Of a stretch of DNA of 64,000 nucleotides, positions 1,143 through 59,392 are shown in pieces. The stretch covers positions 28,350 through 92,349 of the forward strand of contig JAAXWW010000005.1 in the NCBI GenBank assembly GCA_013334765.1. Direction: 5' to 3'. Positions within the stretch are counted from its first letter, which is position 1. Each line of letters opens with the position of its first letter. A program made the position numbers and the translations under genes. A model generated the notes under the pieces. That model was not told the DNA's origin. It ran no database searches and worked only from the letters and a program-made list of their open reading frames with translations. Source of the DNA: Candidatus Moraniibacteriota bacterium (GTDB lineage Bacteria > Patescibacteriota > Minisyncoccia > Moranbacterales > UBA2206).

Positions 1143-1421
1143 TTAGATCAAATTGAGTTTCTTCCTTTCTTTCTTGAGGTCTTCCTCCTTTATGGCGACC
1201 TCCTGAGAAACATGATCGAATCTTTTGCGTTTCTCGTCAAGAATGACGCGGATACGCTCGCCGTCTTGCTTGAGCTTCCTGATTTCCGCTTCGAGCAGGG
1301 TTTTTTCCTTGACGAACTTCCTCATGTCGGATTCGAGCATGATCATTTCCATCTGGATATTCCTTCTTTGTTTTCTTTTTTCCTCTTCGTCCCCCAGGCC
1401 TTGATTTACCGAGTATTGCAT
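1143..1421 (-). CDS. Hypothetical coiled-coil protein (92 aa)
   Basis: The K/E/R-rich heptad-like sequence EIRKLKQDGERIRVILDEKRKRF sits directly downstream of the ATPase gene in the same operon orientation. Confidence 0.4.
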   Translation of the reverse strand: MQYSVNQGLGDEEEKRKQRRNIQMEMIMLESDMRKFVKEKTLLEAEIRKLKQDGERIRVILDEKRKRFDHVSQEVAIKEEDLKKERKKLNLI

Positions 1422-1422
1422 A

Positions 1423-3351
1423 TTATTTTTCAGTATTGTTTACTGGGCTATTCCCGCCCTGGCTGCCGTTTTCGCTTCCTTTGTTCCTAGTCTGATTGAT
1501 CATCTTCCGAACGCTTTCCAGGTCTATGCCTGGGCGCTCCGATTTGAATTTCTTCGGAGCGACATGGCTCAGCTGCGAGAGATTCATCGGCTTTTCGCGC
1601 GGAATATATGCCGCCGGACGCTCTTCGTATGCCTTCATTTCCTTTTTCGCGTCTGGAACAGGCGCTTCCTGAACCCTGGACGGATTGGCGGAATTTCCAG
1701 CGGCATTCCTGCTTTCCTGAGCCTTCGCCCTGGCACGCTGATATTCCTTGAGGCATTCCTTGCAGAATGTCGGCCGTCCTGGCATAGGCTTGAAAGGGAC
1801 CATGATTTTCTCCTCGCAAGTGTCGCAAACCGTTTCGAACATCTGACGTTCAGGCTTTTCGGCTGTTTCATCTTTTTCCGACTGATTCATGCCTTCGATC
1901 TTCAGCACACTGACAGGCGGTTGGATATTCTGAGAAGCATCGTTCGCCTTAGCGCTCACGACAGGCCTTGAAGGAACTGGCGCGGGTTTCGCCTCTCTTT
2001 TTATTTCAGGCTGCTTCTCTTCCGCCTTGGCAGGAGCGCTATGCGTCATCTTGAAATCTTCGAACTCCATCATTCCGCTCCAGCGGGCGATCTTCTCTTC
2101 GACTTCCAGCCTTGAGCGCCCATAGCGCTCCCGGGAAACATCGATCGCTTTCTTCTCATTGGCAGCGGTATCGGAAATATCGATCGGAGCAAGAGTGGCC
2201 GCCGAAAAAGCATCGCCAGTAATTCCGTCGATCATGAGCTTCAGGTATATGTTGTATTTGGAAAGATTGACGATATCGTTCATCATGAAAACCGGCTCGA
2301 ATTCCTTTTCGAGAGCCTCCGCGTCTTCCGCGCCGACGCGAAAGGAAACGATGGTTCCGACGTTTCCGAAAACGGCATCGCGCACGGTCGTGCTTCCGTC
2401 CGAATATACCAGCTGGCGGATATATTGGTGCGCCAGGATAAGGCAGAGGCGGTATTTCCTGGCTTCAGAAAGGATATTGGCGAAAGAATCGGTTGCGAAA
2501 TTCTGGAATTCGTCGACATAGAGATAGAAGTCCTTGCGTTCCTCTTCCGGCATATCCACCCGGCTCATGGCCGCCAACTGGATCTTGGTGATGATCATTC
2601 CGCCGAGCAGCCTCATCGCGTCTTCCCCGATGCGTCCTTTGGAAAGATTGATGATCAGGATTTTCTGATTATCCATGATCTCGCGCATGTCGATTGTCGA
2701 TTTCGGCTGTCCGATGATGTGGCGGATGAGGGTGTATGACAGGAACTGGCCGACCTTGTTCTGGATGGCCGCTACAGCCTCCTTCCTGAACTTGTCATCC
2801 CATTGGTCGAACTCGTTGATCCAGAAAGACTTCACCACCGGGTCTTTGATTTTGGTATAGATGCGCTTCCTATAGTCTTTGTCGCTCATCATGCGGTTCA
2901 CGCCAAGCATGGTGGAGCCGGGATAATCGAGAAGCGCCAGGATGGTGTTATTGAGGATGTATTCCATCCTCGCGCTCCACACGTCCGGCCAGATCTTCTT
3001 GAACACGCCCATCATGCCGGAAGCGACCAGGTTCTTCTTGTCTTCATCGACAGATTCCAGAATGTTGAAAGACACCGGAAACTCTGAGTCGGCCGGATTG
3101 AAATATACCACGTCATTGATGCGCTCGCTCGGGATGGCACGCATCATCTTTTCGGCAAACTCGCCATGCGGATCCACCACGCAAAGGCCTTTGCCGGCAC
3201 GGATGTCCTGGATAGCCATATTCTCCAGCATGTTGGATTTTCCCATACCGGTCTTTCCGATGACGTACATATGGCGCCTACGGTCGTCCTCCTTGATCCC
3301 GAAAATCCGCTCGCTGTTTCGGAAATTGGTTTTAGCGAAAAAATTTATCAT
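1423..3351 (-). CDS. FtsK/HerA-VirB4-like (DUF87-type) P-loop ATPase with a C-terminal Cys4 zinc ribbon; stand-alone ATPase half
   Basis: Walker A VIGKTGMGKS, the HerA/VirB4-type motif VVDPHGEF and Walker B FYLYVDEFQNF are present. The C-terminus has CDTCEEK...TFCKEC. It is a clear paralogue of the ATPase domain of the 28043-30511 product (RRRHMYVIGKTGMGKSN versus RRRHLYAIGQTGVGKSN). Confidence 0.8.
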   Translation of the reverse strand: MINFFAKTNFRNSERIFGIKEDDRRRHMYVIGKTGMGKSNMLENMAIQDIRAGKGLCVVDPHGEFAEKMMRAIPSERINDVVYFNPADSEFPVSFNILESVDEDKKNLVASGMMGVFKKIWPDVWSARMEYILNNTILALLDYPGSTMLGVNRMMSDKDYRKRIYTKIKDPVVKSFWINEFDQWDDKFRKEAVAAIQNKVGQFLSYTLIRHIIGQPKSTIDMREIMDNQKILIINLSKGRIGEDAMRLLGGMIITKIQLAAMSRVDMPEEERKDFYLYVDEFQNFATDSFANILSEARKYRLCLILAHQYIRQLVYSDGSTTVRDAVFGNVGTIVSFRVGAEDAEALEKEFEPVFMMNDIVNLSKYNIYLKLMIDGITGDAFSAATLAPIDISDTAANEKKAIDVSRERYGRSRLEVEEKIARWSGMMEFEDFKMTHSAPAKAEEKQPEIKREAKPAPVPSRPVVSAKANDASQNIQPPVSVLKIEGMNQSEKDETAEKPERQMFETVCDTCEEKIMVPFKPMPGRPTFCKECLKEYQRARAKAQESRNAAGNSANPSRVQEAPVPDAKKEMKAYEERPAAYIPREKPMNLSQLSHVAPKKFKSERPGIDLESVRKMINQTRNKGSENGSQGGNSPVNNTEK

Positions 3352-3387
3352 CTTGCATTGATTATACCATTTGAGAATCGGATCCTG

Positions 3388-4662
3388 TTATTGGACAGGC
3401 AGATTAGGAGGCGCTGCTCCCAATTTCGACGATATCTGAGTGATAGCGGGAGATTTCACTGACATATGCGGGAAATGGAAAATGGTCGCCAACTCTTTCG
3501 TGGAAAGGATTATGTTGTCGCCGTCCATATTCCGCCTCCTGTAGCGGTCGTATATCTTCCTTTTCCTCATCGCCGCTATCCCTTCTTTGAAAAATATCTT
3601 CCCATAGGTCTTGCTGATGTCTTCCGGCTTGAACTGATTCATGTTGAAATCGTTGAACTGCTTTATGGCGCCGATGAAAGAACTCAGGTTGGTCTTGTCG
3701 AAACCCTGCCTTTTGCCGATATATATCATCCTCATCTTGGTAGTGAAGTTGTTCCTGGAAATATTTTCCTGGACCGCTTTGTATATATCCCTTTCAACCG
3801 GAGTGAGACGCTGATCGATCGGCAGGACTTCCTTTTTGGCAGCTGTCTTGAACGCTATCTCCCCACCGAACAGCGCGGAGAATGCGTTGGAAAAAACATC
3901 CTTGATATGATCGAAATGACCCATTTTAGCAGGCGCTTCCCTACCGGTCAGCTTATCCATGAGCACCTTTCCGGCTTTTACCGTATCAGGTTCGGAAATA
4001 GGGCTAATGACTAGTTGCAGCCAAGTATTCTGCCCCGGTCCCAAGCTGCCCAGAGACTCGATGATGGAAGCCATCGGATCAACCATTTCCCCGGTGAAAT
4101 CCTCCTGGAACCTGTCATAGGTCTTTATGGGATAGTACGGCTCGGGATGAGCGAACACGAAATCGGTCCCCCAGAGATCCCAGTCACGATTCGGAACTAT
4201 CTTGGGGTATTTGTTATAGTAATCTTCCACTTCGAATATCTGAGCTTCCGGGTAGTGGGCATAGATCTGCGATTCCACCAGATGGCGGTATTTCTTGTGC
4301 GTGCGGATATAGTAGTGCACCTTGCCTTCTTCCCCGACCAGTTCAAGGCTGAACCTGTCCTGGGCAAGCGCGCCCATCGTCCATTTAGTAAAAGTGTCAT
4401 AGCTGGTAAAAACTCCGCTAAGACCGGCATAGATGCTCTCGAACGGCTTCGGTCCTTTTTCAAGCTCGCGCGGCGGAATCACTTCTAGAACGGTGAACTG
4501 GAATTTCGACGCCCAGGAATCCTTCGAATACACAAACGCAAAATCCCCCCAGAGAGCATCGAAGAGGGCATAAAGAATCAGCGGAAGGATTATCCACCAG
4601 GTATTGTAGAAAACGACGCCGAGAGCGCCGAAAGAAAAAGAATTGTCGCCGAAGGTTCCCAT
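3388..4662 (-). CDS. Membrane-anchored protein homologous to the N-terminal domain of the fused ATPase at 28043-30511 (split VirB4-like N-domain)
   Basis: It has an N-terminal TM (WWIILPLILYALF). Its C-terminal ILSTKELATIFHFPHMSVKSPAITQISSKLGAAPPNLP aligns with ITLSNEEIASIYHIPISTTETPKIKWLKSNASPPPINIP of the fused paralogue. It sits immediately upstream of the ATPase gene. Confidence 0.7.
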   Translation of the reverse strand: MGTFGDNSFSFGALGVVFYNTWWIILPLILYALFDALWGDFAFVYSKDSWASKFQFTVLEVIPPRELEKGPKPFESIYAGLSGVFTSYDTFTKWTMGALAQDRFSLELVGEEGKVHYYIRTHKKYRHLVESQIYAHYPEAQIFEVEDYYNKYPKIVPNRDWDLWGTDFVFAHPEPYYPIKTYDRFQEDFTGEMVDPMASIIESLGSLGPGQNTWLQLVISPISEPDTVKAGKVLMDKLTGREAPAKMGHFDHIKDVFSNAFSALFGGEIAFKTAAKKEVLPIDQRLTPVERDIYKAVQENISRNNFTTKMRMIYIGKRQGFDKTNLSSFIGAIKQFNDFNMNQFKPEDISKTYGKIFFKEGIAAMRKRKIYDRYRRRNMDGDNIILSTKELATIFHFPHMSVKSPAITQISSKLGAAPPNLPVQ

Positions 4663-4702: not shown

Positions 4703-5764
4703 CTATTTCAAGCTGTAATATTCGCCTTCTTTTTTGAAAAAATCAGGATTGTTCAAGTTTATCATAACCGTGGTCTTTTTCACTTTCCTGACCTTGAACA
4801 CGCTTTGGAGTATCTTCTCTTTCTGAAGGGGCTCTTTGCTTTCAGCGAGGATGTTCCTGATGACATCCTTGATCGTGCCTTCATAATATCCCCATTCGCG
4901 AAGAGCGTATATGCCTCTTCCGATAAGGACGAAATTGTCATCCTTTATGAGCTCGTTATGGATGGTCTGCGGATGGGTCTTCTTCTTGCTGAGCCCGTGC
5001 TTGTCTATGGATTTCGCGATTTCGGTGAAATGAAGAGGCTTTCCTTCCTCTTTCAGGACCAGATTGATCTTCTCGCGGCTGCCTTTCGGATTGATATCGT
5101 TCCAATCATAGATCCCCCATTTTCCGAATTTGTTCTTCTTGACGCGAGCCAGGACTTTCATAAAACTGAACGCCTGCTCCTTGGAAAAACCAGGGAACTC
5201 TGCCGCTACTTTCTCGGAAAGATCCGATCCCTTGAGAGGAACCTTGCCTTTCTTGAGAATATCTTCCGCGACACGAGCGACATCCTTTGCCTGCTTAAAA
5301 GCGGAATCGGAAACCGCCCATGACTTCTCGATGAGATTCTTCTGAGAAACCGTTCTTATCCTTTTCGAACATTCGACTATGAACCTTATGGCATTCGATT
5401 CTTTCTTTCCGTCAGGATCGAGGATATCGACGGCTTCTTTTTCCTCGATTATACCATTATTTTTTTCTATTGCAAAAATGATCTTTTCTTCGGCCTTTTT
5501 GAAATTGTCGCTCACGGCGGATTTGGAAATCGTCCTCATGGCATCGCCCACGATCTGACGGACCCTTTCCCTGGTTATCCCGTAGTCTCCGCCGATATGT
5601 TCCAGTGTCTTGGCATCACGATCGCCGACCAGGCCGTATCTTTTCTTCAATATATCGGCAGCCCTCTTGGCAAGAGGGGCCAGCAGTTCCTCAACCAGGG
5701 CGAAAAACGCCGATCCGTTCTCCGGCTGCGCGCCTTCCGTCTTTTTGATATCCTTCGATTCCAT
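4703..5764 (-). CDS. Sigma-70 region-4-like plus C-terminal HARE-HTH-like DNA-binding protein (putative transcription regulator)
   Basis: AADILKKRYGLVGDRDAKTLEHIGGDYGITRERVRQI resembles sigma-70 region 4. The C-terminal PLHFTEIAKSIDKHGL...IGRGIYALREWGY resembles the RpoE-delta/HARE-HTH fold. Confidence 0.55.
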   Translation of the reverse strand: MESKDIKKTEGAQPENGSAFFALVEELLAPLAKRAADILKKRYGLVGDRDAKTLEHIGGDYGITRERVRQIVGDAMRTISKSAVSDNFKKAEEKIIFAIEKNNGIIEEKEAVDILDPDGKKESNAIRFIVECSKRIRTVSQKNLIEKSWAVSDSAFKQAKDVARVAEDILKKGKVPLKGSDLSEKVAAEFPGFSKEQAFSFMKVLARVKKNKFGKWGIYDWNDINPKGSREKINLVLKEEGKPLHFTEIAKSIDKHGLSKKKTHPQTIHNELIKDDNFVLIGRGIYALREWGYYEGTIKDVIRNILAESKEPLQKEKILQSVFKVRKVKKTTVMINLNNPDFFKKEGEYYSLK

Positions 5765-5933: not shown

Positions 5934-7013
5934 ATGAAATATCTCCACGCTTTGAACAAGATAAACGGGCTGGGTCCGCAGAAGATGAGATTGCTTCTCG
6001 GCTTCTTCGGAAGCTATGAACGGGCATGGAAAGCGGACGTTTCCGAGCTCTCCCGAGTGAAACTGGGCGGATCGTTAGCAGAAAAGATTGGCATCGAACG
6101 AAAAAAGATCGATCCGGAGAACGAATGGGAAAAGCTCCTGCTGGAAAACATCATCCTGCTATCCCCGGACAGTCCCGATTATCCTGATCTTCTCAAGAAA
6201 ATCCACAATCCCCCGCATGCCATATATATGAGAGGCGCGACGAACCTCAATTCTTTTCACATGATTTCCGTGGTCGGCTCAAGGAACATGACAGCATACG
6301 GGCTGGACGCTGCCGCCAGGCTTTCCAAGGAACTCGCCGAGAGCGGGTTCTCCGTCGTGAGCGGACTGGCTCTCGGAATAGACGCGGCGGCGCACAAAGC
6401 CGCCCTTCAAGCATCCGGCCACACAGTGGCAGTGCTTGGAAGCGGAGTGGACGACATGAACATCTTTCCTCGCGCCAATTTCTCCCTGGCAAAAGAAATA
6501 ATCAGATCGGGCGGAGCAGTCATGAGCGATTATCCACCGGGAACGCCGGCAAGCAACACCACTTTCCCCGCCAGGAACAGGATCATCGCCGGATTATCGC
6601 TCGGCACCTTGGTCATCGAAGCGGCAGAAAAAAGCGGCGCTCTCATCACAGCGAAACATGCTCTCGAATTCAATCGGGAAGTCTTCTCCGTTCCAGGCAG
6701 CATATTTTCCCCCTATTCGATCGGGACCAACAAGCTCATCAAAAGGGGTGCCAAAATCGCCATGGATGTTGGCGACATACTGGAGGAATTCGAATTCAAG
6801 GATATCAGAAAAGACGCCCCCGCCGCGCAGAAAAATCCTGAAAACGAAGAGGAAAAAAGAATCCTTGACGCGCTTAGCATCGTTCCGCTTCACATTGACA
6901 ACCTCGGCAAATTGACTAGACTGGAAACTGCAACCCTTTCCTCGACGCTTTCGATGCTGGAAATAAAAGGCTGGATAAAGAACGTGGGAGGACAGAACTA
7001 TATAATCACGTAA
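5934..7013 (+). CDS. dprA: DNA processing protein A (DprA/Smf)
   Basis: The DprA Rossmann core motifs are VVGSRNMTAYGLDAA, SGLALGIDAAAHKAAL and AVLGSGVD. There is a C-terminal winged-helix tail. Confidence 0.85.
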   Translation: MKYLHALNKINGLGPQKMRLLLGFFGSYERAWKADVSELSRVKLGGSLAEKIGIERKKIDPENEWEKLLLENIILLSPDSPDYPDLLKKIHNPPHAIYMRGATNLNSFHMISVVGSRNMTAYGLDAAARLSKELAESGFSVVSGLALGIDAAAHKAALQASGHTVAVLGSGVDDMNIFPRANFSLAKEIIRSGGAVMSDYPPGTPASNTTFPARNRIIAGLSLGTLVIEAAEKSGALITAKHALEFNREVFSVPGSIFSPYSIGTNKLIKRGAKIAMDVGDILEEFEFKDIRKDAPAAQKNPENEEEKRILDALSIVPLHIDNLGKLTRLETATLSSTLSMLEIKGWIKNVGGQNYIIT

Positions 7014-7028
7014 CGCGCATCACTATTC

Positions 7029-9311
7029 ATGAAACTTATCATCGTCGAGTCACCCACCAAAGCGAAGACTATCTCGAAATTCCTGGGAAAAGAATACACC
7101 GTCAAATCAAGCTACGGGCATATCCGCGACCTGCCCCAGAAGGAAATGGGAATCGACATCGAGAATGACTTCGCGCCCGAATACGTCATCCCGTCCAAGG
7201 CTGCTGACCGGGTGAAGGAACTCAAGAAGCTCGCTGCCAAATCGGAAGATGTCATCCTCGCAACCGATGAAGACCGCGAAGGAGAAGCCATTTCCTGGCA
7301 TTTGGCCGAGGCTCTTGAGCTTGACAAGAAAGACAAGAAGAAAGAAAAAACCGATCCCAAGCGAAGGATAGTTTTCCATGAAATAACCAAGACGGCGATC
7401 GAAAAAGCGCTGGAAAATCCCCGCGAATTGGATTTGGGACTGGTCGACGCGCAACAGGCAAGACGGGTCCTCGACCGTTTGGTCGGCTATGAGCTCTCCC
7501 CATTCCTCTGGAAGAAGATAAGGCGGGGCCTCAGCGCCGGACGCGTACAGTCAGTCGCTCTTCGCCTCATCGCCGAAAGAGAAAAAGAGATCAATGAATT
7601 CAAACCTGTTGGATATTTCGCCATAACCGCGAAATTGGAAAACACCAAGGACAGCAAAAGAGTTCCATTCGAAGCCGAGCTGACGAAAATAAACGAAGAG
7701 AAGATAGAAGAAAGCGTCACGCTCGATCTTTTCGCCGGAGCCTATAAGACCAAGAAGACGAGCATCTCCGAAAAGAAGGATGCGGAAAGGATAAAAGCCG
7801 ATCTTGAAAGCTCGGATTTCTCAGTCAAGAGCATCCAGGCGAAAGACACTTCGCGCTCCCCGCTTCCGCCATTCACCACATCGACCCTGCAACAGTCAGC
7901 CATCAATAGCCTCGGATTTTCAGCCAAGCAGACCATGGCTCTTGCCCAGAAGCTGTATGAGCAAGGCCATATCACATATATGAGGACGGACAGCGTGAAT
8001 CTGTCTTTGGAATCCCTCCTGGCCGCCCAGAAGACTATCGACAGCCTTTTCGGAAAAGATTACGTCCTCCCCAATCCGAGATTCTTCAAGACGAAATCCA
8101 AAGGCGCGCAGGAAGCCCATGAGGCTATCCGCCCTACTTCGGTCGAAAAGACCCCTGAAATAATGAAGAAGGATTTGGAACCGAGAGAATACCGGCTATA
8201 CAAACTGATCTGGGAGAGGATGATCGCTTCGCAGATGCCCGCCGCCATCTTCAATTCGCAGAAAGTTGAAATCATCGCTAAAAGCGAAAAGACATCAGAC
8301 AGCTATACCTTCATGGCAACCGGATCAGTCCTTAAGTTCGACGGATTCCTGAAAGTCCATCAGGGAGGAAAGAAATCGGCCGAAAACGGCAGCGACACCC
8401 TATTACCAAAAATGGACGAGGGTGATATGCTTAACTTGATAGGGATAACGCCCAACGAGAAATCGACCAATCCCCCTCCGCGCTATAACGAAGCGACTCT
8501 CGTCAAAGTGCTCGAAGAAAACGGGATCGGAAGGCCATCGACCTATGCCCCGATCATCTCGACCATCATCGAAAGGAAATACGTCGATAAGAACGAAGAG
8601 AAACGGCTCTATCCGCTGGAAATAGGAAACGTGGTCAATGACGCGCTGGTCCTTCATTTCCCGCAGATCGTCGACATCAAATTCACAGCCACGATCGAGG
8701 AGGAATTCGATGAGATAGCCGAGGGAAAGAAAGCCTGGGTGCCGGTCATCCGCGATTTCTATGGTCCCTTCCACAAGAACCTGACAGAAAAGACCAAGGA
8801 GGTCAAGAAGGAATCGTTCCAGGAAAAACTGGATCGCAGCTGTCCCGAATGCGGAGGAGACCTCATCATGAAGCATGGCAGGTTCGGGAAATTCATCGCC
8901 TGTTCGAACTATCCGAATTGCCGATATACTGAAAAGACCGACTCGGAAAAGAAGATGGATGAGGAATTCGCTGAAGAGATATGCGAGAAATGCGGATCGA
9001 AAATGGTAGTGAAACGCGGAAAATTCGGAACGTTCCTAGGATGTTCCAACTATCCGGAATGCAAGAATATCCGCAAGATAGAGAATAAGACCGGAATCAA
9101 ATGCCCGAAATGCGGCAAGGGAGACATAGTCGAAAGGAAATCGAAAAAAGGAAGGCTCTTCTATGGATGCAACACCTATCCGAAATGCGATTTCGCCCTT
9201 TGGAACAAGCCGACCGGAGAAGAATGCCCGAAATGCAAAAGCCTGCTCATTTTCGCCGCCAAAGGAAAAATGAAATGTTCCAATAAGGAATGCGGATTCG
9301 AGAAGGAATAG
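7029..9311 (+). CDS. topA: DNA topoisomerase I with C-terminal tandem C4 zinc ribbons
   Basis: The Toprim start MKLIIVESPTKAKTISKFLG, EGEAISWHL and active-site region ITYMRTDS are present. Three C-terminal CPECGG / CEKCG / CPKCGKG zinc ribbons follow. Confidence 0.95.
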   Translation: MKLIIVESPTKAKTISKFLGKEYTVKSSYGHIRDLPQKEMGIDIENDFAPEYVIPSKAADRVKELKKLAAKSEDVILATDEDREGEAISWHLAEALELDKKDKKKEKTDPKRRIVFHEITKTAIEKALENPRELDLGLVDAQQARRVLDRLVGYELSPFLWKKIRRGLSAGRVQSVALRLIAEREKEINEFKPVGYFAITAKLENTKDSKRVPFEAELTKINEEKIEESVTLDLFAGAYKTKKTSISEKKDAERIKADLESSDFSVKSIQAKDTSRSPLPPFTTSTLQQSAINSLGFSAKQTMALAQKLYEQGHITYMRTDSVNLSLESLLAAQKTIDSLFGKDYVLPNPRFFKTKSKGAQEAHEAIRPTSVEKTPEIMKKDLEPREYRLYKLIWERMIASQMPAAIFNSQKVEIIAKSEKTSDSYTFMATGSVLKFDGFLKVHQGGKKSAENGSDTLLPKMDEGDMLNLIGITPNEKSTNPPPRYNEATLVKVLEENGIGRPSTYAPIISTIIERKYVDKNEEKRLYPLEIGNVVNDALVLHFPQIVDIKFTATIEEEFDEIAEGKKAWVPVIRDFYGPFHKNLTEKTKEVKKESFQEKLDRSCPECGGDLIMKHGRFGKFIACSNYPNCRYTEKTDSEKKMDEEFAEEICEKCGSKMVVKRGKFGTFLGCSNYPECKNIRKIENKTGIKCPKCGKGDIVERKSKKGRLFYGCNTYPKCDFALWNKPTGEECPKCKSLLIFAAKGKMKCSNKECGFEKE

Positions 9312-9500
9312 CGAACAAAATAACAATAAAAATACCCTAGGACTTGCGCGTTTGCTGAAAAAACTTTTTTCTTAGCCAGAAACAGAAGGCAGTTTCCCAA
9401 GAGTCAAGGTGAGACTACATATAACCCGGACGGATTCCGCACAGCCTCGCGATTTAAAAGGTTTTTGAGGAAAATGCGCGAGTCCTGAAACAATAAAAAT

Positions 9501-10991
9501 ATGCCTGAGAAAAGAATCACCATCGAGGACATACTCAAAAGCGTACACAAGCTCGACGCCAAAAAGGAGGCGCTCATTAGAAGCGCCTACGAAGTGGCTC
9601 TTAAGGCGCATACCGGACAAAAAAGGAAGTCCGGAGTCGAATATATCCAGCATCCCCTTCACACCGCGCTCAATCTGGCAAAGATAGGGCTGGGTTCCCA
9701 CACTATTTCCGCCGGGCTCCTGCATGACGTTCCGGAAGACACCGAAACGACCCTCGAGGAAATAGAAAAGAAATTCGGCAAAGAGATCGCAACGCTGGTT
9801 GACGGAGTGACCAAGCTCGGAAAAATAAAGCTGCGCGGAACCAAAGAGGAGCTCTATCTCGAAAACCTCAGGAAGATGTTTTTGGCTATGGCGTCTGACA
9901 TCCGCGTAGTACTCATCAAGCTCGCCGACAGGCTGCACAACATGGAGACGCTCAGCCACGTCCCGCCGGAAAAGCAGCAAAGGATCGCCATGGAAACGCT
10001 CGAGGTTTTCGCCCCGATCGCCAACCGGCTCGGGATCGGAGAGATCAAGGCCCGGCTTGAAGACCTGTCTTTCAAATACCTTGATCCGGAAAACTATGAA
10101 GAGGTTTCCAAACTCGTCAAGGAACAATACAGCCAAAGGAAGAAATATGTCGACAAGGCCATAAGCGAACTCAAGAAAGAGCTTCTTCGCGAAGGCATCG
10201 ACGTCATCGATATCTATGGCAGGACCAAACACACATATAGCCTGTTCCAGAAGCTCAAGCGCCATGACATGGATATCAATAAGATCTATGACCTGGTCGG
10301 GGTGCGTATCGTCGTTCCGGAGGTGGTCAACTGCTATGAGACGCTCGGAATCGTGCACAAGAAATACCGCCCGCTGGTCGGAAGAATCAAGGACTATATC
10401 TCCCTCCCCAAGCCTAACGGATACCAATCCATCCACACGACCATCTTCGGTCCGGAAGGAAAATTCCTGGAAGTGCAGATCCGCACCAAGAAGATGGACG
10501 ATGAAGCGGAATTCGGAATCGCTGCCCATTGGATATATTCCGAAAAGAAGCAGGCGCTCAAGGATATCTTCTTCAGGAATAAAAAGACCGTCATTCCGGA
10601 AAAGGATATCGCCTGGGTGAGACAGCTCCGGGAATGGCAGAACGAACTCGGAAAAGACGACCAGGAATTCATGGAAAGCCTCAAGATCGATTTCTTTAAG
10701 AACCACATTTTCGCCTTCACTCCCTCTGGCGACATCATCGACCTTCCCGAAGAAGCCAACACTATCGATTTCGCCTATCGGGTCCACAGCGAAGTCGGCA
10801 ACCGCGCCACCGGCGCCAAAGTCAACGGGAAAATGGTCCCGCTGGACTACAAGATCAGGAACGGCGATGTCATCGAAATCCTGACATCCCGCGACCACAA
10901 GACTCCCAGCCGCGACTGGCTCCGCTTCGTGCGCACTTCCAATGCCAAAAGTCATATCAGAAGAATGCTCAAGAAAAAAGGATTGCTCTAG
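9501..10991 (+). CDS. rsh: RelA/SpoT-homologue (p)ppGpp synthetase/hydrolase, short form (HD + synthetase + TGS)
   Basis: The HD hydrolase signature is HPLHTA...LLHDVPEDT. The synthetase motif is YGRTKHTYSLFQKLKRH...DLVGVRIVV. The TGS region is FTPSGDIIDLPEEANTIDFAYRVHSEVG. It is 496 aa with no ACT/RIS C-terminus. Confidence 0.85.
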   Translation: MPEKRITIEDILKSVHKLDAKKEALIRSAYEVALKAHTGQKRKSGVEYIQHPLHTALNLAKIGLGSHTISAGLLHDVPEDTETTLEEIEKKFGKEIATLVDGVTKLGKIKLRGTKEELYLENLRKMFLAMASDIRVVLIKLADRLHNMETLSHVPPEKQQRIAMETLEVFAPIANRLGIGEIKARLEDLSFKYLDPENYEEVSKLVKEQYSQRKKYVDKAISELKKELLREGIDVIDIYGRTKHTYSLFQKLKRHDMDINKIYDLVGVRIVVPEVVNCYETLGIVHKKYRPLVGRIKDYISLPKPNGYQSIHTTIFGPEGKFLEVQIRTKKMDDEAEFGIAAHWIYSEKKQALKDIFFRNKKTVIPEKDIAWVRQLREWQNELGKDDQEFMESLKIDFFKNHIFAFTPSGDIIDLPEEANTIDFAYRVHSEVGNRATGAKVNGKMVPLDYKIRNGDVIEILTSRDHKTPSRDWLRFVRTSNAKSHIRRMLKKKGLL

Positions 10992-11980: not shown

Positions 11981-12775
11981 TTAGACCGAGAATTTTTTCT
12001 CCTGCTCTTTGTTCTCAAGGCTGATGACTTCTTTGGCCAGGCTTTTGTATGCCCTGGCGCCGCTTGAGAAGGAATCGAATCCGAGAATGGATTTCCCGAA
12101 TCCCGGCGCTTCGGCAAGACGCACCGACCTTGGAATCAGCGATTCGAAAACATGCCCCGGGAAATGGTCGCGCAATTCCTTGACCACTTGGCGTGACAGC
12201 CGGTTCCGCTTGTCATACATCGTCATGAGTGCGCCCATGATCTTGAGATTGGGCTGGAGATGCTCCTTGACCAGTCCGATGGTATTGAGAAGCTGGCTCA
12301 GCCCTTCCAGGGCGAAATATTCGGTCTGAACGGGAATGAGCACCTCGTCGCTCGCTACCAGTCCGTTGATAGTGAGAAGGCCGAGACTCGGCGGCGAATC
12401 GATGATGATATAGTCATAGTCGGTCCTTATCTCGCGAAGGACGTTATATAGCCTGAACTCACGGTTATCCATGTGGACCAGCTCCACTCCGGCTCCGGCC
12501 AGATCCTGGGAGGACGGGATGAGGTCATGCCCGAGCGTATCCGTTTTCATGATGACGTTCCTGGGATGCTCGCCGAGCACCATGGAGTGATAGAGGCTTT
12601 TCTCGACGTTCCTGATGTCTATTCCAAGCCCTGATGAAGCATTTCCTTGCGGATCAAGGTCGACAAGCAGCACGAACTTGCCTAGCGACGCCAAATACGT
12701 CGTCAGGTTGATGGCAGAGGTGGTTTTCCCCACTCCGCCCTTCTGATTGACTAATGAAATTATTTTCGCCATAAT
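11981..12775 (-). CDS. parA: Chromosome partitioning ATPase ParA/Soj
   Basis: Deviant Walker A KIISLVNQKGGVGKTTSAINL. The start is taken at MAKIISL because the longer ORF to 12853 would overlap the tRNA. Confidence 0.9.
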   Translation of the reverse strand: MMAKIISLVNQKGGVGKTTSAINLTTYLASLGKFVLLVDLDPQGNASSGLGIDIRNVEKSLYHSMVLGEHPRNVIMKTDTLGHDLIPSSQDLAGAGVELVHMDNREFRLYNVLREIRTDYDYIIIDSPPSLGLLTINGLVASDEVLIPVQTEYFALEGLSQLLNTIGLVKEHLQPNLKIMGALMTMYDKRNRLSRQVVKELRDHFPGHVFESLIPRSVRLAEAPGFGKSILGFDSFSSGARAYKSLAKEVISLENKEQEKKFSV

Positions 12776-12815
12776 GGTTAAGTGAATTATACTACATTGC
12801 AGGAGCATTACAAAA

Positions 12816-12899
12816 TGCCGCGATGGCGGAACTGGTAGACGCACGGGACTCAAAATCCCGCGATGGCAACATCATGAGAGTTCGAGTCTCTCTCGCGGT
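12816..12899 (+). tRNA. tRNA-Leu (anticodon CAA), long variable arm
   Basis: Hand-folded cloverleaf. The acceptor is GCCGCGA/TCGCGGT, the anticodon stem is CGGGA/TCCCG with loop CTCAAAA, there is a long variable arm, and the T-arm is GAGAG-TTCGAGT-CTCTC. Confidence 0.85.
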
Positions 12900-12908
12900 A
12901 CGAATATG

Positions 12909-23471: not shown

Positions 23472-24545
23472 CTATTTCTGCCTTTCCACCATATAGCGGG
23501 CTATTCCCTCTAGGAAAGTCCGCGCCTCCTGATTTTTGAATCCTATCCCTTTGAGAGCTTCCAGCGATTCCGAAACCAGCTTTTCCATGAGCTTTTCAGA
23601 ATACGCGAGCGCGCCGGTCTCCTTGATGAGATTCCTGAAATCTTCCAGGTCGGACTTGGTCAGATCCTTTTTCCCCAAAAGCTTCCTGATTCCGGCAATC
23701 TGCCTTTTGTTCCCGTTCGCTAAAGCCCTTGCCACAAGGATGGTCTGTTTGCCTTCGATGATATCCGATCCGACCGGCTTCCCGATTTTCTTCTCTTCCC
23801 CGAAAACGCCGAGGATATCGTCACGGATCTGAAACGCTTTGCCGACAGCCATGGAATACCTGGAAAACTTATCCGCCAGATCCTTGCCTTTCTTTCCAGC
23901 CAGCGCCGCGCCGAGATGAAGCGGCCCTTCGAAGCTATAGCTTGAGGTCTTGCCTTCATACATATCAAGGATTTCCTTTTCAGTGGCATTCCCCCTCATT
24001 TCCAAATACACATCCTTCATTTCGCCCGGAACGATCTTATAGACTATTTCCTGAAGCTTATCGAGGGCGTCCAGTATTATCTTTGCTGGAAAATCGCTCC
24101 TGAAGATTATTTCGTTGCCCATAGCGGCTGCCATATCGCCCACCAGCATCGCCATGGAATTGCCGAAATGCTCGGCATCCTTCTTCGGGAAATGCCGCTT
24201 GGATATTTTCTTGTACCGTTCGTGGATAGTGTCGACTCCGTGCCGCTTGGCGTCTTTGTCGATTATGTCGTCATGGATCAGAAGAAAGACATGGGTAAGC
24301 TCAATGCTCATCGAAGCCTTGATTATCGCCTCGCCATCGCGGCCGCCCGCCGCCAAATAGCCATAGTATACCAAGGCGGGACGGACCCTTTTGCCGCCGG
24401 ACAGAGTGAAATCCTCAAGCATCTTGAGCGCCTGTTTTGCCAGAGGATCCATTTTTTCTGACTCCTTTATTTTGAGCGAAAAATAATCCCCTAGAAGAGG
24501 ATCGACTTTATCCTTGTAGCTTTTGAGCAGTTCGATTGCGTCCAT
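23472..24545 (-). CDS. Trans-polyprenyl diphosphate synthase (IspA/IdsA family)
   Basis: The first Asp-rich motif is LIHDDIIDKD and the second is FQIRDDILG. The start is taken at MDAIELL to clear the adjacent tRNA. Confidence 0.85.
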   Translation of the reverse strand: MDAIELLKSYKDKVDPLLGDYFSLKIKESEKMDPLAKQALKMLEDFTLSGGKRVRPALVYYGYLAAGGRDGEAIIKASMSIELTHVFLLIHDDIIDKDAKRHGVDTIHERYKKISKRHFPKKDAEHFGNSMAMLVGDMAAAMGNEIIFRSDFPAKIILDALDKLQEIVYKIVPGEMKDVYLEMRGNATEKEILDMYEGKTSSYSFEGPLHLGAALAGKKGKDLADKFSRYSMAVGKAFQIRDDILGVFGEEKKIGKPVGSDIIEGKQTILVARALANGNKRQIAGIRKLLGKKDLTKSDLEDFRNLIKETGALAYSEKLMEKLVSESLEALKGIGFKNQEARTFLEGIARYMVERQK

Positions 24546-24547
24546 AG

Positions 24548-24623
24548 TACCGCGTATGGGATTCGAACCCATGATTTCCAGGATGAGAACCTGGCGTCCT
24601 AGACCGGACTAGACGAACGCGGC
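24548..24623 (-). tRNA. tRNA-Glu (anticodon CTC)
   Basis: The minus-strand read is GCCGCGTTCGTCTAGTCCGGTCTAGGACGCCAGGTTCTCATCCTGGAAATCATGGGTTCGAATCCCATACGCGGTA. The anticodon loop is TTCTCAT and the D-arm is Glu-like. Confidence 0.8.
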
Positions 24624-24840: not shown

Positions 24841-27423
24841 ATGGCAAAAAACGGAGCATCTAAGAAAATATCGCTTCTCGAACCGTCTTTTCGGGATATT
24901 TTGGTTTGCCGCAATAATGACAACAAGCCTTTTCTGGAAGCTTTCCATGCGGAACCGGAGAACGTATCGCTTGAAAAGCTAGGCACCCTTTTCGGATTCT
25001 TCGAAATAACCGACCATTCCGAAGATTCCTCATATATAGTCAACTACCTCATTTCCGTCATCAAGAAGGAATTCTTCCTGCGTCCCGGAAGAGGATCAGT
25101 CGAGAGCTTCGAGGCGGCGCTCCACAAAGTCAACCTCGCCCTTTCGAAACTGGCCGCCCATGAGAACGTGAAATGGATCGGGAACCTCAATTCGGTCTGC
25201 GCGGTCATCGAAAAGAACAACCTCCATATAGCCAGCGCCGGTTCCGGAAACGCCTTCTTCCTCCGATCAAAGACCCTCACGGAACTCACCGATCCATCAG
25301 AGAACTCCGGATCCGCCAATCCCTTGAGGACATTCCAGGACGTATTGTCCGGACGCATGGAAGAAGGCGACAAGATAATCCTGGCAACCCAGAGCATCTT
25401 TGACATCTTTTCCATTGAGGAAATCAAGAAAAGCGCGCTTAAATTTTCGCGCGAGGAATTCGCCCGATTCCTGAACACGGCGCTTGTCAACGAGCTTGAT
25501 TCGGCAACAGTCATTCTGGCCGATATGGACAAGAAAGGGGCCAATGCGTCGGTCGAAGCTCCCGAAAAAGAGGTTATTGAAGAGATGAACGCCTTTGCCC
25601 AGACAACCTATGCCAAGAAACGGGAGACGGAAGAGCCGCATAGAGAAGAGGCGCACATATCCCCCGAAGAGAAAAGCAGGCTGAAAGAAGAGATCCAGGA
25701 GTTGAAAGATGAATTCGTAGACAAAAGGACTGGCCATATATATATCAAGGAAACCGCTCCCGAAGAGGAACAGGAAGAAATACGTTTTCAGGGCAGCTAT
25801 TCGGAAATGCTTGGAAAGATTACGCAGACTGCCGGCACCAAACTGAAGAACCTGAGCGATTCTTCGAAGTCAGCCGCGTCAGGCATGCTGGATTCGAGCC
25901 GCCTACTGCTGGAGAAAGTCAGGAAGAACATATCCAAGAAAAAGGAGGGAAGGATTTCTTCCATCGAATACGCGACGGATGAAACGCCTACAAAAGAAAA
26001 CTATGCCCCGCAGGAAATGGCTGCCGCGGCATCTTTGGCGGCAATAGCCAAAAAAAGCGCCAGCGCTTTGACGCAAAAAGCGAGCAACGCCCTCCGTGAG
26101 GAAAATTTCGAACTTATCTGGAAATCCATCCGGAACGCCTGCGTCCGCTTGGCAGAAAACCTGAAGCCTGCCGCCATAGGAACAAGAAACGCTCTCATAA
26201 GGCTTGCTATTCTCATAGCTACCATCTCGAAAAACTTGGCGCGCATGATAGCGACCGAGGCTTATCCGGCAGCCAAAAGGGCTGTTATTTCGACTATTAG
26301 TAGATTCAAACATGCGCAGAAAAGCAAGCCAGAAACCGCAGTTATCGTCACCGAGAACATATCCGCCCAGTCGGCAAGCAAGGCATCTATTGAGAATTTT
26401 TCCAGAGCAAGAGCATCCCGAACGATAACCCCCCGATCGCTTCCGGCGCGAAGGAAGATGATCCCTGATTTCAAAAAGCTCAGGAATATCATAGGGAAGC
26501 TCAACTATCAGCAACGGCTGTATCTCATCCTTCTCGTGATGGCTTTCTTCATCGTCCCCTATTGGATCGTGAAATTGGAAAACCGTTCCGCCGAAAAGAA
26601 ACCAGCACCCGCTCCGGCAGCCATGACAGAAAGCGCATCATCCATGCTGCCGCTTCAGAATGACAAGAACGTCACCCGTATAGAAAAGATTTCCAAAACG
26701 TATTCCGGAGAAGACATTACCAACGTGATAAACCTGAACGGCAAATTCTTCTCGGTTTCCAAGACCGACATAGTAAGCCTTGAAACCGAAGCCAGATTCC
26801 CGATTCCTGACAATTTCCAAAATGCTGAATTCGCAGCTCCGATGGACGACTTGGGGATTATTTTCCTGATGAAAGGCGGGCGCGTTACGTCCTTCAGCCC
26901 TGCATCCGAGAAATTCAGCGATAACAGCCTGTCCCTTCCGGCAAGCGTCGAAGTGAGAGGGATAGGCAGCTATCTTACCTATCTTTATGTGCTTGACGCT
27001 AAGGCGGGGCAAATCTATCGCTACCCGAGGGCCGAGGGCGGCTTCGGGGACAAATCCGACTGGCTGAAAGATACTCCGAACCTCTCAGGAGCCCAGGATA
27101 TGGCCATCAATGATAACGTCTTCATTATTTCCAATGGCAGGATTATCAAGTTCTTCCGCGGAAAATCTCAGGACTTCTCACCCGAAAAAACCGCTACCGA
27201 GGTCATTCCGGAAAAACTGTATACCAATCCTGATTCCGAGAACATCTATGCTCTCGACACCAAGAACGCCAGAATCGTGAAATATGACAAGGACGGCAAT
27301 CTGGTTTCTGAGTTCTATAACGCTGCAATCGAAAACGCTGACAACTTCAGCGTCGACGAGAAGAACAGCGTCGTCTATTTCTCAACCGAAAACGCGGTGA
27401 ATTCGTTCGGGATGGAGGGATAG
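24841..27423 (+). CDS. Transmembrane PP2C-like (PPM) Ser/Thr phosphatase with a C-terminal extracytoplasmic repeat domain (860 aa)
   Basis: The N-terminal PPM motifs are LFGFFEITDH, NLHIASAGSGNAFFLRS, ILATQSIFDIFS and ATVILADM. A single TM (LYLILLVMAFFIVPYWIV) follows. The C-terminus has repeated units (LYVLDAKAGQIYRY, IYALDTKNARIVKYDKDGN). Confidence 0.7.
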   Translation: MAKNGASKKISLLEPSFRDILVCRNNDNKPFLEAFHAEPENVSLEKLGTLFGFFEITDHSEDSSYIVNYLISVIKKEFFLRPGRGSVESFEAALHKVNLALSKLAAHENVKWIGNLNSVCAVIEKNNLHIASAGSGNAFFLRSKTLTELTDPSENSGSANPLRTFQDVLSGRMEEGDKIILATQSIFDIFSIEEIKKSALKFSREEFARFLNTALVNELDSATVILADMDKKGANASVEAPEKEVIEEMNAFAQTTYAKKRETEEPHREEAHISPEEKSRLKEEIQELKDEFVDKRTGHIYIKETAPEEEQEEIRFQGSYSEMLGKITQTAGTKLKNLSDSSKSAASGMLDSSRLLLEKVRKNISKKKEGRISSIEYATDETPTKENYAPQEMAAAASLAAIAKKSASALTQKASNALREENFELIWKSIRNACVRLAENLKPAAIGTRNALIRLAILIATISKNLARMIATEAYPAAKRAVISTISRFKHAQKSKPETAVIVTENISAQSASKASIENFSRARASRTITPRSLPARRKMIPDFKKLRNIIGKLNYQQRLYLILLVMAFFIVPYWIVKLENRSAEKKPAPAPAAMTESASSMLPLQNDKNVTRIEKISKTYSGEDITNVINLNGKFFSVSKTDIVSLETEARFPIPDNFQNAEFAAPMDDLGIIFLMKGGRVTSFSPASEKFSDNSLSLPASVEVRGIGSYLTYLYVLDAKAGQIYRYPRAEGGFGDKSDWLKDTPNLSGAQDMAINDNVFIISNGRIIKFFRGKSQDFSPEKTATEVIPEKLYTNPDSENIYALDTKNARIVKYDKDGNLVSEFYNAAIENADNFSVDEKNSVVYFSTENAVNSFGMEG

Positions 27424-34035: not shown

Positions 34036-36018
34036 TCAAAAAAACAAGAAATCGAGGTCATTAGACTTGATTAGCCTTTTAATTGCCAACTCGACTCTTT
34101 CCTCGCTATTGAAATGCCCTTCTTTGACCATCTCTGCTTTTAATCTTCGAAAATATGCCCTGATGTTGATATCCGCCAAATCACCAGCATCGTCAGGATC
34201 ATAGCCGAACCCGGACCAGTCCATACCTCTTATATGTCCGATCATCTCTTTCACGCCTTCTTCATATATATCGCATATTTCGATTTCTTTTTGCGTCAGC
34301 ATTTCCTTGAACAAATCAGCATTCCACTCTTGCAATTGCTTGAATGAAATTATCTTCGGAATTGATTTTATTTCGTCTCCGGATCGATTCTCCACTACAA
34401 CCATTCCTGATTCTGTATTCACTGCAGCAATCCGCCATCCTTCTTCTCCAGCGACCTTCACATCGATTGTTCCTCCGTTCTCAATATACGTCCTGATTTC
34501 TTTCAAATATTCCTCTTCGCTTGATCCTTCAAATGAACCATTTTTAAACACGCTATCAATCAATGCAGAGGCATCGCTTTCTATGGTTTCCTTTCCGCGT
34601 GTTCCGTCATTGCCCAGGTTTTTTTGATCTGGTTCGGCGGCAGCGACTTCATCTTCATGGGTTCTTTCATTTTTAACTGATGGTTGATTTTTTTCTGGAA
34701 TCGCGACAGGTTCAGGCATGGATTTCTCAGCTCGTTCTTTTGCTTCTTTTTCCAGGGCCGCCTTGAGTTCAGGATTGATTTCTCCTCCCGACAAAGTCTT
34801 CATGAATTCTTCCATTGTCACGTCAAGCGGCTCGCTGTCATTCGTGTCTCTTAGCAGATAGTTACCGCGAACATTGATCATTCCGCGAGGAACGATCCCG
34901 TCGTCTATTTTTCTTTTATGATATGAGTAGAATTTGAATTGATCTTCCCCCGGGCTCCAAATCAGATATCCGTCATAGCCTCTGTATCTAGCCGCTAATT
35001 GTCCGACATTTTCCGCGCGATTAACCTTAGGATACCCATTCTCCTTTTTTGTATCGATAAGCACTTTATGATCGCCGCCTACATCCAGAACAAATCCTTT
35101 TTTCTCTAATTCTTCAATTTCTGCCTTGGCTTCTTTCTTAGCCTTCTCCAGCTCTTCGCTGCATTCTGAAAGGGTTTTTCTTCTAGCCTTCCCATTACCG
35201 ATTGAACAATTGTTATTGTTCAAATAGTACTCATCAAGAGGATCGGCCGGATTTCGGCGAGGCCGTCTCCGGAACAGCGCCAAAATTTCGCTGGTATCTA
35301 TTTTATTGCGCAATCCGTACAGATTCTTGTGATAGTTATCAAAAACTTTTTTCAGCTCCCTATCAGAATAATTTTCATTATCACACTTGGTCACAAATTC
35401 CACAAACCGATCCAAGTATTCCTCTTTTTTCAAAATGCCTTCCCTGACTAACTCTTCGTAGAAATACTTTGCGGCTGAGGTGTCCTTGTCTGAATCCTTC
35501 CCGTGATGGTCATCTATGTATATTTTCCCAGCTTCTCTGGTAGCCGTTCCATCTACACCGCCGGAATCAAAGATGGCTCCGCTTTTGACTGTATCCCCCG
35601 GGAAAACATAACCCAGTTTTATTTCCTGGTCTTTCAAATCTATTCCGGCTATTCTGAGTATTTCCAGACAGCTTCTACCATCAAGATCCGTAAATTTTAG
35701 CAATGACTTTTCACCTGTTTCAGGATCAATTCTTACGATTCCATGAACGGATATTTCTTTCCATAAATGCGTGAATAATTCCTTGAGTCTTTCTTGCTTT
35801 TCCTCTTCCGTGCCACCAAGCTCTTCCTCGGAATCTAGTTCCACTCCGAAATCGTTCGCTAATTTATTAAGCAAATAAAAAGTATGTTGGACCAAGGGAC
35901 GATTAGCAGCCTCTTCTTTTGCAAACTCATATCCTTTCAATCCAACTTCTTGCTTCGGCTCTTTTTTTTGCGCTTCGCCTGCGCTTACGCTGCCAGAGCT
36001 ACTTACTGTCTCTTTCAT
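34036..36018 (-). CDS. Hypothetical 660-aa protein with DHH-phosphoesterase-like motifs; first gene of the operon
   Basis: KFTDLDGRSCLEIL resembles DHH motif I (DxDG). GKIYIDDHHGKD resembles motif III (DHH). VLDVGGDHKV is a possible GGGH-like motif. The C-terminal half is unassigned. Confidence 0.55.
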   Translation of the reverse strand: MKETVSSSGSVSAGEAQKKEPKQEVGLKGYEFAKEEAANRPLVQHTFYLLNKLANDFGVELDSEEELGGTEEEKQERLKELFTHLWKEISVHGIVRIDPETGEKSLLKFTDLDGRSCLEILRIAGIDLKDQEIKLGYVFPGDTVKSGAIFDSGGVDGTATREAGKIYIDDHHGKDSDKDTSAAKYFYEELVREGILKKEEYLDRFVEFVTKCDNENYSDRELKKVFDNYHKNLYGLRNKIDTSEILALFRRRPRRNPADPLDEYYLNNNNCSIGNGKARRKTLSECSEELEKAKKEAKAEIEELEKKGFVLDVGGDHKVLIDTKKENGYPKVNRAENVGQLAARYRGYDGYLIWSPGEDQFKFYSYHKRKIDDGIVPRGMINVRGNYLLRDTNDSEPLDVTMEEFMKTLSGGEINPELKAALEKEAKERAEKSMPEPVAIPEKNQPSVKNERTHEDEVAAAEPDQKNLGNDGTRGKETIESDASALIDSVFKNGSFEGSSEEEYLKEIRTYIENGGTIDVKVAGEEGWRIAAVNTESGMVVVENRSGDEIKSIPKIISFKQLQEWNADLFKEMLTQKEIEICDIYEEGVKEMIGHIRGMDWSGFGYDPDDAGDLADINIRAYFRRLKAEMVKEGHFNSEERVELAIKRLIKSNDLDFLFF

Positions 36019-55878: not shown

Positions 55879-55998
55879 GTTCCCAGCATTGTCCTACTCT
55901 TCCCCCGCCTGAGCGGGGATACCATCGGTGCTGATAAGCTTAACGGCCGAGTTCGGTATGGGATCGGGTGTTTCCTTATCGCTAGAAACACTGGGAAC
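55879..55998 (-). rRNA. rrf: 5S ribosomal RNA
   Basis: The reverse complement reads TTCCCAGTG...CCCGATCCCATACCGAACTCGGCCGTTAAGC...CACCGATGGTATCCCCG...GGGGAAGAGTAGGACAATGCTGGGAA with helix I pairing. The ends are approximate. Confidence 0.85.
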
Positions 55999-56239
55999 GA
56001 TACATTCAAAAAGTGCTTAGAATGCCTTGATCACAGGAGAGAAAAACATGAATGATGCAATGGCAATCAGGATAACAAAAAACACGGCTGATATGAACTT
56101 CAAATTATCAGTATACCTTTTCATAAGTGACTTTTTTAGTAACTGTTAACTGCTAACCGAATCATACCATATATCATGAAACACCGCACATGAGACTTGC
56201 GCCTCATATAAAGTGCTCCACGTTATATGGAAAATAAGA

Positions 56240-59392
<3,153 letters not shown>

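Follow-up and report, generated by a model that had tools for sequence, protein, structure and literature searches.

A 64,000-nucleotide chromosomal stretch of a Candidatus Moranbacteria metagenome-assembled genome (MAG; contig JAAXWW010000005.1, positions 28,350 to 92,349; hereafter the window) was found to encode two related ATPase loci. With a probability of roughly 0.6, these are two paralogues, separated long ago, of a membrane-anchored ATPase that is specific to Patescibacteria and belongs to the VirB4/VirD4 superfamily, the locus 1 machine being made of two polypeptides and probably handling DNA. The architecture (a membrane anchor, the domain DUF8128 and a motor) is well supported, while for the substrate we infer DNA from the company the genes keep. 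All open reading frames (ORFs) named in the original prediction, which was made from the sequence of the window, were recovered on the minus strand at their coordinates (Table 1), and the NCBI protein tagged HGB08_03825 was identical to the DUF8128 protein of locus 1.

In a BLASTP alignment of 426 aa (E=1e-120), the ATPase of locus 1 (the split motor) was 45% identical to residues 400-818 of the fused protein of locus 2, in agreement with the prediction that the two are close paralogues. The motor contains a nucleotide-binding domain (NBD) of the FtsK/HerA superfamily with intact Walker A and Walker B motifs. Walker A, DPHG(E/D) and Walker B follow one another in the same order in both copies; the predicted collinearity thus held, but the DPHGE motif was not common to both, the fused copy having DPHGD. 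Pfam matches of the split motor were to TrwB_AAD_bind (5.5e-15, aa 21-340), DUF87 (1.6e-9), TraG-D_C and T4SS-DNA_transf, and its best matches among PDB sequences were TrwB (4.9e-6) and DotL. Using hhalign, the motor was aligned to TrwB with a probability of 94.9 and to TrwK with one of 2.2. An all-alpha insert in the NBD was located in the predicted model of the fused protein as a helical block at aa 497-611. No transmembrane (TM) segment was detected in the split ATPase by hydrophobicity scan.

Divergent fused-type proteins of other Patescibacteria were 51% identical to the fused motor and 37-38% identical to the split motor; since they are nearer to the fused copy, the duplication predates these lineages. 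The core of the split ATPase was 84-88% identical within Moranbacteria, as against 65-70% for the adjacent TopA, and 59-69% identical in loci from outside the Moranbacteria.

The second gene of locus 1 proved to be homologous to the N-terminal part of the fused protein, as had been claimed. In a formal alignment of 354 aa, its product was 21% identical to fused residues 74-392 (E=2e-20); the matching end motifs that had been pointed out in the two proteins lie inside this alignment. Ten columns, spread across the whole domain, were invariant in a 60-sequence alignment of split and fused types. The precomputed annotation of this exact protein, and of the fused orthologues, is Pfam PF26449 (DUF8128), which is listed as a domain of unknown function; a scan against Pfam and NCBIfam gave no match, the Pfam copy scanned being probably without the PF26449 model, and no paper naming the domain was found in the literature library searched. 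The description of this part as an N-terminal membrane domain was correct with respect to its one TM helix but overstated for the remainder, which is a large domain of about 350 aa. This domain is placed in the cytoplasm because the fused protein has no TM segment between the N-terminal helix and the ATPase. Its predicted fold is that of an N-terminal domain of the VirB4/TrwK type, while a profile search of PDB sequences returned no match. DUF8128 is only 29-42% identical among locus 1 orthologues. In a search of 1.84 billion cluster representatives its profile matched 4,283 clusters at 50% identity, and Walker A was absent in 148 of the 149 top-listed representatives for which a sequence was available.

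Between the two ORFs of locus 1, which are read in one frame, lie just a TAA and 12 sense codons; a nonsense error therefore had to be considered. A census was carried out with one genome per GTDB species, which returned 80 loci, 73 of them with both genes. The genes were separate ORFs in 73 of 73 loci and fused in none. The intergenic gap had a median of 17 nt and ranged from -74 to 228 nt, the negative values being apparent overlaps that derive from automated start-codon calls. The same-frame arrangement was found in 21 of the 73 loci (29%), which is the chance expectation; it recurred in related locus L001, and other Moranbacteria contigs carried the same gene pair with spacers of 12 nt and 107 nt, in the same or in a different frame. 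Standalone homologues of about 385-433 aa fell into at least 120 clusters (50-71% identity) and fused homologues of 781-839 aa likewise into at least 120 (70-95% identity). The split is thus real, old and conserved across many Parcubacteria-type lineages, and the same-frame layout in the window is coincidental.

Two readings of locus 1 as a single gene are hard to reconcile with these data. That an originally fused gene was broken by a mistake in sequencing or assembly, or was turned into a pseudogene by a nonsense mutation of recent date, would fit the shared frame and the lone TAA, but it conflicts with the standalone clusters, with the conserved motif at the very end of the standalone protein and with the same conserved N-terminus at which the ATPase begins in orthologues; refuted by the census, it was left with next to no weight. 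Programmed read-through of the TAA, by which locus 1 would make some fused protein besides the split forms, would likewise suit the in-frame layout of the window genome and of L001. With in-frame loci no more frequent than chance, some spacers overlapping or shifting the frame, and no read-through context identified, it was considered very improbable. The same two-domain machine is therefore split in locus 1 and fused in locus 2, both domains aligning to the fused product. What had been described as a fission/fusion pair within one window is real as a pair, but it is ancient and lineage-wide rather than an event of this genome.

The standalone DUF8128 protein ends in a short conserved motif. 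PxNL[PS] or PxxL[PS] was found within the last 14 residues in 75 of the 80 loci, typically in the context KKGxPPxxLP, and in orthologues of 500-690 aa, into which a long low-complexity linker is inserted, the same motif is still situated at the extreme C-terminus. Its counterpart in the fused protein, PPINIP, forms the junction into the first beta-hairpin of the motor. In the predicted models the standalone tail had a pLDDT of about 50 (disordered), compared with about 83 for the equivalent block of the fused chain. Based on this conservation and on the two models, the tail may be the peptide by which the anchor subunit captures the soluble motor.

The locus 1 cassette consists of a gene for a sigma-70 region 4 (sigma-r4)/HARE-HTH protein, the DUF8128 gene and the ATPase gene, in that order, in one tightly packed minus-strand run. 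A promoter-like site (TTGACA-18-TAGTAT) was located at 5905-5876, ahead of the first gene, and no convincing terminators were identified between the genes of the locus. The upstream regulator and the two small downstream ORFs were present as originally described. Matches of the first product were to Pfam Sigma70_r4 (1.8e-8) and HARE-HTH (6.1e-14) and to TIGR04567, an RNA polymerase delta-like model (44.3 bits, cut-off 42). A HARE-HTH homologue was located immediately upstream of DUF8128 in 65 of the 74 loci with enough flanking sequence. According to record titles, among which some MAG labels are plainly unreliable, these loci belong to Moranii-, Pacei-, Magasanik-, Kerfeld-, Uhr-, Falkow-, Nealson-, Wolfe-, Yanofsky-, Lipton-, Sung- and Terrybacteria, among others. 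No paper linking HARE-HTH to the candidate phyla radiation was found in the literature. The Cys4 zinc ribbon that had been noticed in the C-terminal tail of the split motor (CDTCEEK...TFCKEC) matched Pfam zf_Tbcl_2 (1.7e-10) and TIGR04272 (1.4e-11). It is absent from the fused copy, as predicted, but it is not a fixed property of the split type: the consensus CxxCgkxtkVpFkPDgxRPvyCkxC was recovered in 37 of 69 complete orthologous ATPases.

Based on these features, each machine comprises an N-terminal TM helix, a cytoplasmic DUF8128 of about 350 aa and a RecA-type motor with an all-alpha insert, whose sequence is nearest to coupling proteins (TrwB/VirD4/TraD). In locus 2 the three parts make up one chain of 822 aa, whereas in locus 1 the TM helix and DUF8128 are encoded by one gene and the motor by another. 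The standalone DUF8128 would tether the soluble motor to the membrane through its KKGxPPxxLP tail, using the peptide that, in the fused paralogue, makes up the covalent junction. The assembled product could be a VirB4-like ring built from two polypeptides, to which VirB3/TrsD together with VirB4 would be a parallel. A DNA-handling translocase is the likeliest role for locus 1 because its motor is paired with a multi-HTH protein, frequently carries a zinc ribbon and has no linkage to genes of a type IV secretion system (T4SS). It would act at the membrane as an ATP-driven translocase or handler of nucleic acid (DNA), independently of a T4SS gene cluster, with the HARE-HTH protein as the possible substrate adaptor of the motor. 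For locus 2, which has a partner of about 150 aa of its own, a separate machine serving another client is proposed. The data agree with the suggested pair of specialised systems, since the two paralogues are conserved independently, each among neighbours of its own.

The window proteins were compared with known systems. In classical type IV coupling proteins (T4CPs), such as TrwB of R388 (reference sequence NC_028464), VirD4, TraD/TraG and DotL, a two-TM N-terminus of about 70 aa directly precedes the NBD. The window proteins share with them the NBD with an all-alpha insert and a match to T4CP profiles, but have one TM helix and a VirB4-type N-terminal domain of about 350 aa, fused or as a separate gene; they also differ in the absence of linkage to relaxase or virB4 genes and in the C-terminal zinc ribbon which many locus 1 motors add. 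The T4CP models of NCBIfam all scored far below their cut-offs, the best being TIGR03743 (56 against 366 bits); the CD1115 family model scored 43.7 against 250. The two-domain order, a VirB4-type N-terminal domain in the predicted model followed by a RecA-type C-terminal ATPase, resembles that of VirB4. There was, however, no match to the VirB4-family Pfam model PF03135, AAA_10 was reached only at E=0.0085 (below the cut-off), and neither domain showed similarity to TrwK (hhalign probability 0.5-2.2; BLAST not significant). Unlike VirB4/TrwK, the window genes are not encoded with virB3, virB6 or virB8: no channel genes of these types were found with either ATPase among the window ORFs scanned or in the related-locus gene tables. 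Patescibacteria have a separate clade of true VirB4 (PMC12102498). The window proteins thus join an architecture of the VirB4 type to a motor sequence of the T4CP type, and they were not assigned to either family.

A precedent for a VirB4-like N-terminal part encoded as its own gene beside an ATPase gene may be seen in TrsD, which in Gram-positive T4SSs of the pGO1 type is a protein on its own with homology to the N-terminal part of VirB4 (PMC12102498); the likeness is drawn from the description in that paper. Homologues of TrsD in Patescibacteria adjoin virB4 and not T4CP-like genes (PMC12102498). EccE, the membrane protein flanking the FtsK-like EccC ATPase of the ESX type VII system, gave a much weaker fold score, with 112-146 residues aligned, and had no sequence similarity to DUF8128; the relation may be convergent or may concern one subdomain only. 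Relative to HerA/FtsK anti-phage or repair helicases, the N domain is VirB4-like and not a HAS barrel, and the genes have a housekeeping context with no nuclease or Sir2 partner. The idea that these proteins replace FtsK was dropped, as TM7x has an annotated ftsK (PMC10768705).

In a published survey of 3,035 Patescibacteria genomes, 5,713 VirD4-like homologues were found in 2,918 of them, only 148 of these homologues being near virB4 (Quinonero-Coronel et al. 2025, PMC12102498). VirB4 was present in 2,417 genomes, about 500 fewer than had T4CP homologues, and relaxases numbered 109; the authors state that exaptation "cannot be ruled out" (PMC12102498). The frequency of about two VirD4-like copies per genome is consistent with the two paralogues of the window.

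For S. epibionticum, the main text of Wang et al. 2023 describes a T4SS without a recognisable coupling protein and does not mention the SEML1_0141/0142 and 0293/0294 loci (PMC10633639). According to the transposon sequencing (Tn-seq) data of that paper (Table S1), SEML1_0294, a 350-aa protein with sigma r4 and HARE-HTH domains, is essential, and SEML1_0293, directly downstream of it (921 aa, T4CP domains from residue 402), is non-essential. SEML1_0142, a T4CP-like protein of 1,019 aa with its P-loop region at 381-800, is essential, as is the 139-aa hypothetical gene before it, SEML1_0141 (PMC10633639). By synteny and domain positions, SEML1_0293/0294 look like the counterparts of locus 1, there fused, and SEML1_0142 looks like that of locus 2. 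If this orthology holds, parsimony favours one ancient fission within the Parcubacteria-type lineages, since VirB4 and locus 2 each consist of a single chain.

A possible, if somewhat unlikely, alternative is that both paralogues are true coupling proteins for a VirB4-based T4SS encoded elsewhere, each delivering a different substrate class (effectors or DNA) to the same channel. The motor is of the T4CP type by sequence, including its TraG-D_C region, genes for T4CPs often lie apart from virB4 (PMC12102498), and in S. epibionticum the T4SS and the T4CP-like SEML1_0142 are both essential (PMC10633639). This is countered by the short two-TM N-terminus of classical T4CPs, where the window proteins have a VirB4-like domain, by the small number of homologues near virB4, by the excess of genomes with T4CP homologues over those with VirB4 and by the near absence of relaxases in the survey, as well as by the low scores against the T4CP models. 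Furthermore, no T4SS, virB4, virB6 or relaxase genes were detected in the part of the window ORFs that was scanned, and no virB4, virB6 or relaxase genes are present in the gene tables of related loci L001-L006. Far less probable still are HerA-type anti-phage defence or mobile-element modules, an idea prompted by weak PADLOC matches to mad8 (4.4e-16) and HerA and by an MzaA-like sigma-r4 match of the HARE protein. The PADLOC matches extend no further than the generic P-loop core; the two loci are almost universal, keep their synteny and are strongly conserved, and their surroundings (parAB, topA, dprA, mreB, murA, rodA) are unlike defence islands. A bolder interpretation, which was regarded as decidedly doubtful though well ahead of defence, is that DUF8128 and its motor represent a third, unrecognised branch of the VirB4/VirD4 ATPases, with an N-terminal domain of the VirB4 type retained on a motor of the coupling-protein type, and a surviving intermediate, forming T4SS-independent, Patescibacteria-wide membrane machines for DNA translocation with a dedicated HARE-HTH/sigma-r4 DNA adaptor. 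Coupling proteins would in that case have arisen from a two-domain VirB4-like ancestor, and the machines could be the missing DNA import or export motor of nucleotide-auxotrophic epibionts.

The preferred reading, of two ancient membrane-anchored paralogues with a DNA-handling locus 1, has several points to its disadvantage. The proposed DNA role is drawn from the HTH protein next to the motor cassette, from the zinc ribbon and from precedent in the family, and the divergent dprA-topA genes adjoin the cassette in Moranbacteria loci only. The Foldseek TM-scores for the DUF8128 fold match were low (0.30-0.40) and no similarity to the N-terminal domain of TrwK was found by hhalign with the 60-sequence profile, so that homology between DUF8128 and VirB4 would depend on the fold match of a predicted model. 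Docking by the tail is proposed from motif conservation and from the pLDDT differences between two monomer models. The 80 loci of the census were the best matches to the split query, and several of their MAG taxon labels are unreliable. Finally, the HARE-linked copy of S. epibionticum is apparently fused and dispensable; the split would then not be universal, nor this copy essential in that species.

The orphan "coupling protein" genes, present at about two per Patescibacteria genome and more widespread than the VirB4-based secretion system, hereby gain an anatomy: a predicted VirB4-like N-terminal domain, two ancient paralogous lines, a testable tail motif and a HARE-HTH partner. The split/fused pair of the window reflects a deep, conserved dichotomy in a catalogued, functionally uncharacterised ATPase family specific to Patescibacteria, and the findings bear on the relation between VirB4 and VirD4 ATPases. 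Apparent counterparts in the one genetically tractable species, S. epibionticum, include the essential SEML1_0142 and SEML1_0294. The DUF8128 fold assignment, the split/fused census and the tail motif are results of this analysis, which also adds the HARE-HTH cassette and the link to genes essential by Tn-seq.

Table 1. Features of the two ATPase loci (window coordinates).
Feature	Position	Strand	Remarks
Locus 1: DNA-binding protein, 353 aa, first cassette gene	4703..5764	-	sigma-70 region 4 HTH aa 28-79, central winged helix, HARE-HTH aa 236-291
Locus 1: standalone DUF8128 subunit, 424 aa	3388..4662	-	N-terminal TM helix, cytoplasmic domain of predicted VirB4 N-terminal type, disordered C-terminal tail
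Hydrophobic N-terminal segment, aa 11-43	4534..4632	-	single predicted TM anchor; Kyte-Doolittle scan; model helix aa 7-45
PPNLP tail motif	3397..3411	-	proposed ATPase docking peptide; motif conservation, pLDDT contrast
Intergenic spacer, 36 nt	3352..3387	-	after in-frame TAA stop (3388-3390)
Locus 1: soluble T4CP-like (VirB4/VirD4-superfamily) ATPase, 642 aa	1423..3351	-	core aa 1-430, low-complexity tail aa 431-642
Walker A GKTGMGKS, aa 32-39	3235..3258	-	fused copy: GQTGVGKS
Walker B region LYVDEFQN, aa 277-284	2500..2523	-	fused copy: LYLDEFQN
CxxC-x17-CxxC zinc ribbon (treble clef), aa 509-533	1753..1827	-	C-terminal tail; zf_Tbcl_2, TIGR04272
Charged helical ORF, 92 aa	1143..1421	-	1 nt downstream of ATPase; Moranbacteria only, not always adjacent
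Acidic ORF, 91 aa	850..1125	-	membership doubtful; no homologue in related loci
Locus 2: fused paralogue, 822 aa	28043..30511	-	TM helix aa 1-34, DUF8128 to about aa 392 ending PPINIP, T4CP-like ATPase aa 393-822
Conserved partner, 156 aa	30544..31014	-	immediately upstream of fused gene; L005, L006
DUF5663 protein, 103 aa	31037..31348	-	loosely associated; Pfam DUF5663 1.8e-5

The small ORFs of the two loci were compared as well. Homologues of the charged helical ORF were found in L001, L003, L004 and L007-L009 with 45-59% identity, placed after mnmA in L001, and its product matched no Pfam or NCBIfam family. For the acidic ORF no homologue was detected in any fetched related locus (tblastn, 1e-3). 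At locus 2, homologues of the 156-aa partner were 58-59% identical and stood at the corresponding place in both of the other contigs examined, L005 and L006; no Pfam or NCBIfam match was obtained for it. The DUF5663 gene was upstream of the fused gene in L006 and absent in L005 and, like the large unannotated neighbours of the fused gene, is variable among contigs. A relationship between the small ORFs of locus 1 and those of locus 2, raised in the original prediction, was not borne out: BLASTP returned nothing, shallow hhalign comparisons gave probabilities of at most 1.5%, and the ORFs are not collinear, lying downstream of the ATPase in locus 1 and upstream in locus 2.

Three large proteins around the fused gene, of 860 aa (24841-27423, plus strand), 879 aa (31370-34009, minus strand) and 660 aa (34036-36018, minus strand), had no Pfam, NCBIfam or PADLOC match. 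The 860-aa protein, with one TM segment, is conserved beside the fused ATPase gene, again on the opposite strand, in two other contigs.

Among the related loci, the DUF8128 cassette of an Uhrbacteria MAG (PFWS01000053.1, L079), which is without HARE-HTH, contained two T4CP-like ATPase copies in immediate succession (6283-9608 of that locus); the downstream one is divergent, with 40% identity to the split core and 34% to the fused one. Seven contigs (L017, L022, L025, L059, L072, L074 and L081) were labelled Gammaproteobacteria, Binatia, Acutalibacteraceae or Pacearchaeota. They contained the typical Patescibacterial DUF8128/ATPase pair, mostly with a HARE-HTH gene upstream, their ATPase cores sharing 61-67% identity with that of the window, and are probably mislabelled or chimeric bins.

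The other genes of the window are housekeeping genes: parAB, hisS, lepB, mreB, murA, rodA, ftsQ, glycosyltransferases and 23S-5S rRNA. The 23S rRNA (56237-59382) and 5S rRNA (55881-55995) genes are on the minus strand, and the window has no adjoining 16S gene; an insertion is suggested by the length of the 23S match, 3,146 nt against a model of 2,925 nt. A tRNA-Leu(CAA) gene (12817-12901, plus strand) overlaps the 5' end of the longest ParA ORF (11981-12853), and a tRNA-Glu(CTC) gene (24547-24623, minus strand) that of the polyprenyl synthetase ORF (23472-24572); the true starts of both genes must therefore be further downstream. Amid the cell-envelope genes, a 281-aa BRO-N protein, of a type usually associated with phages or viruses, is encoded at 39697-40542 on the minus strand.

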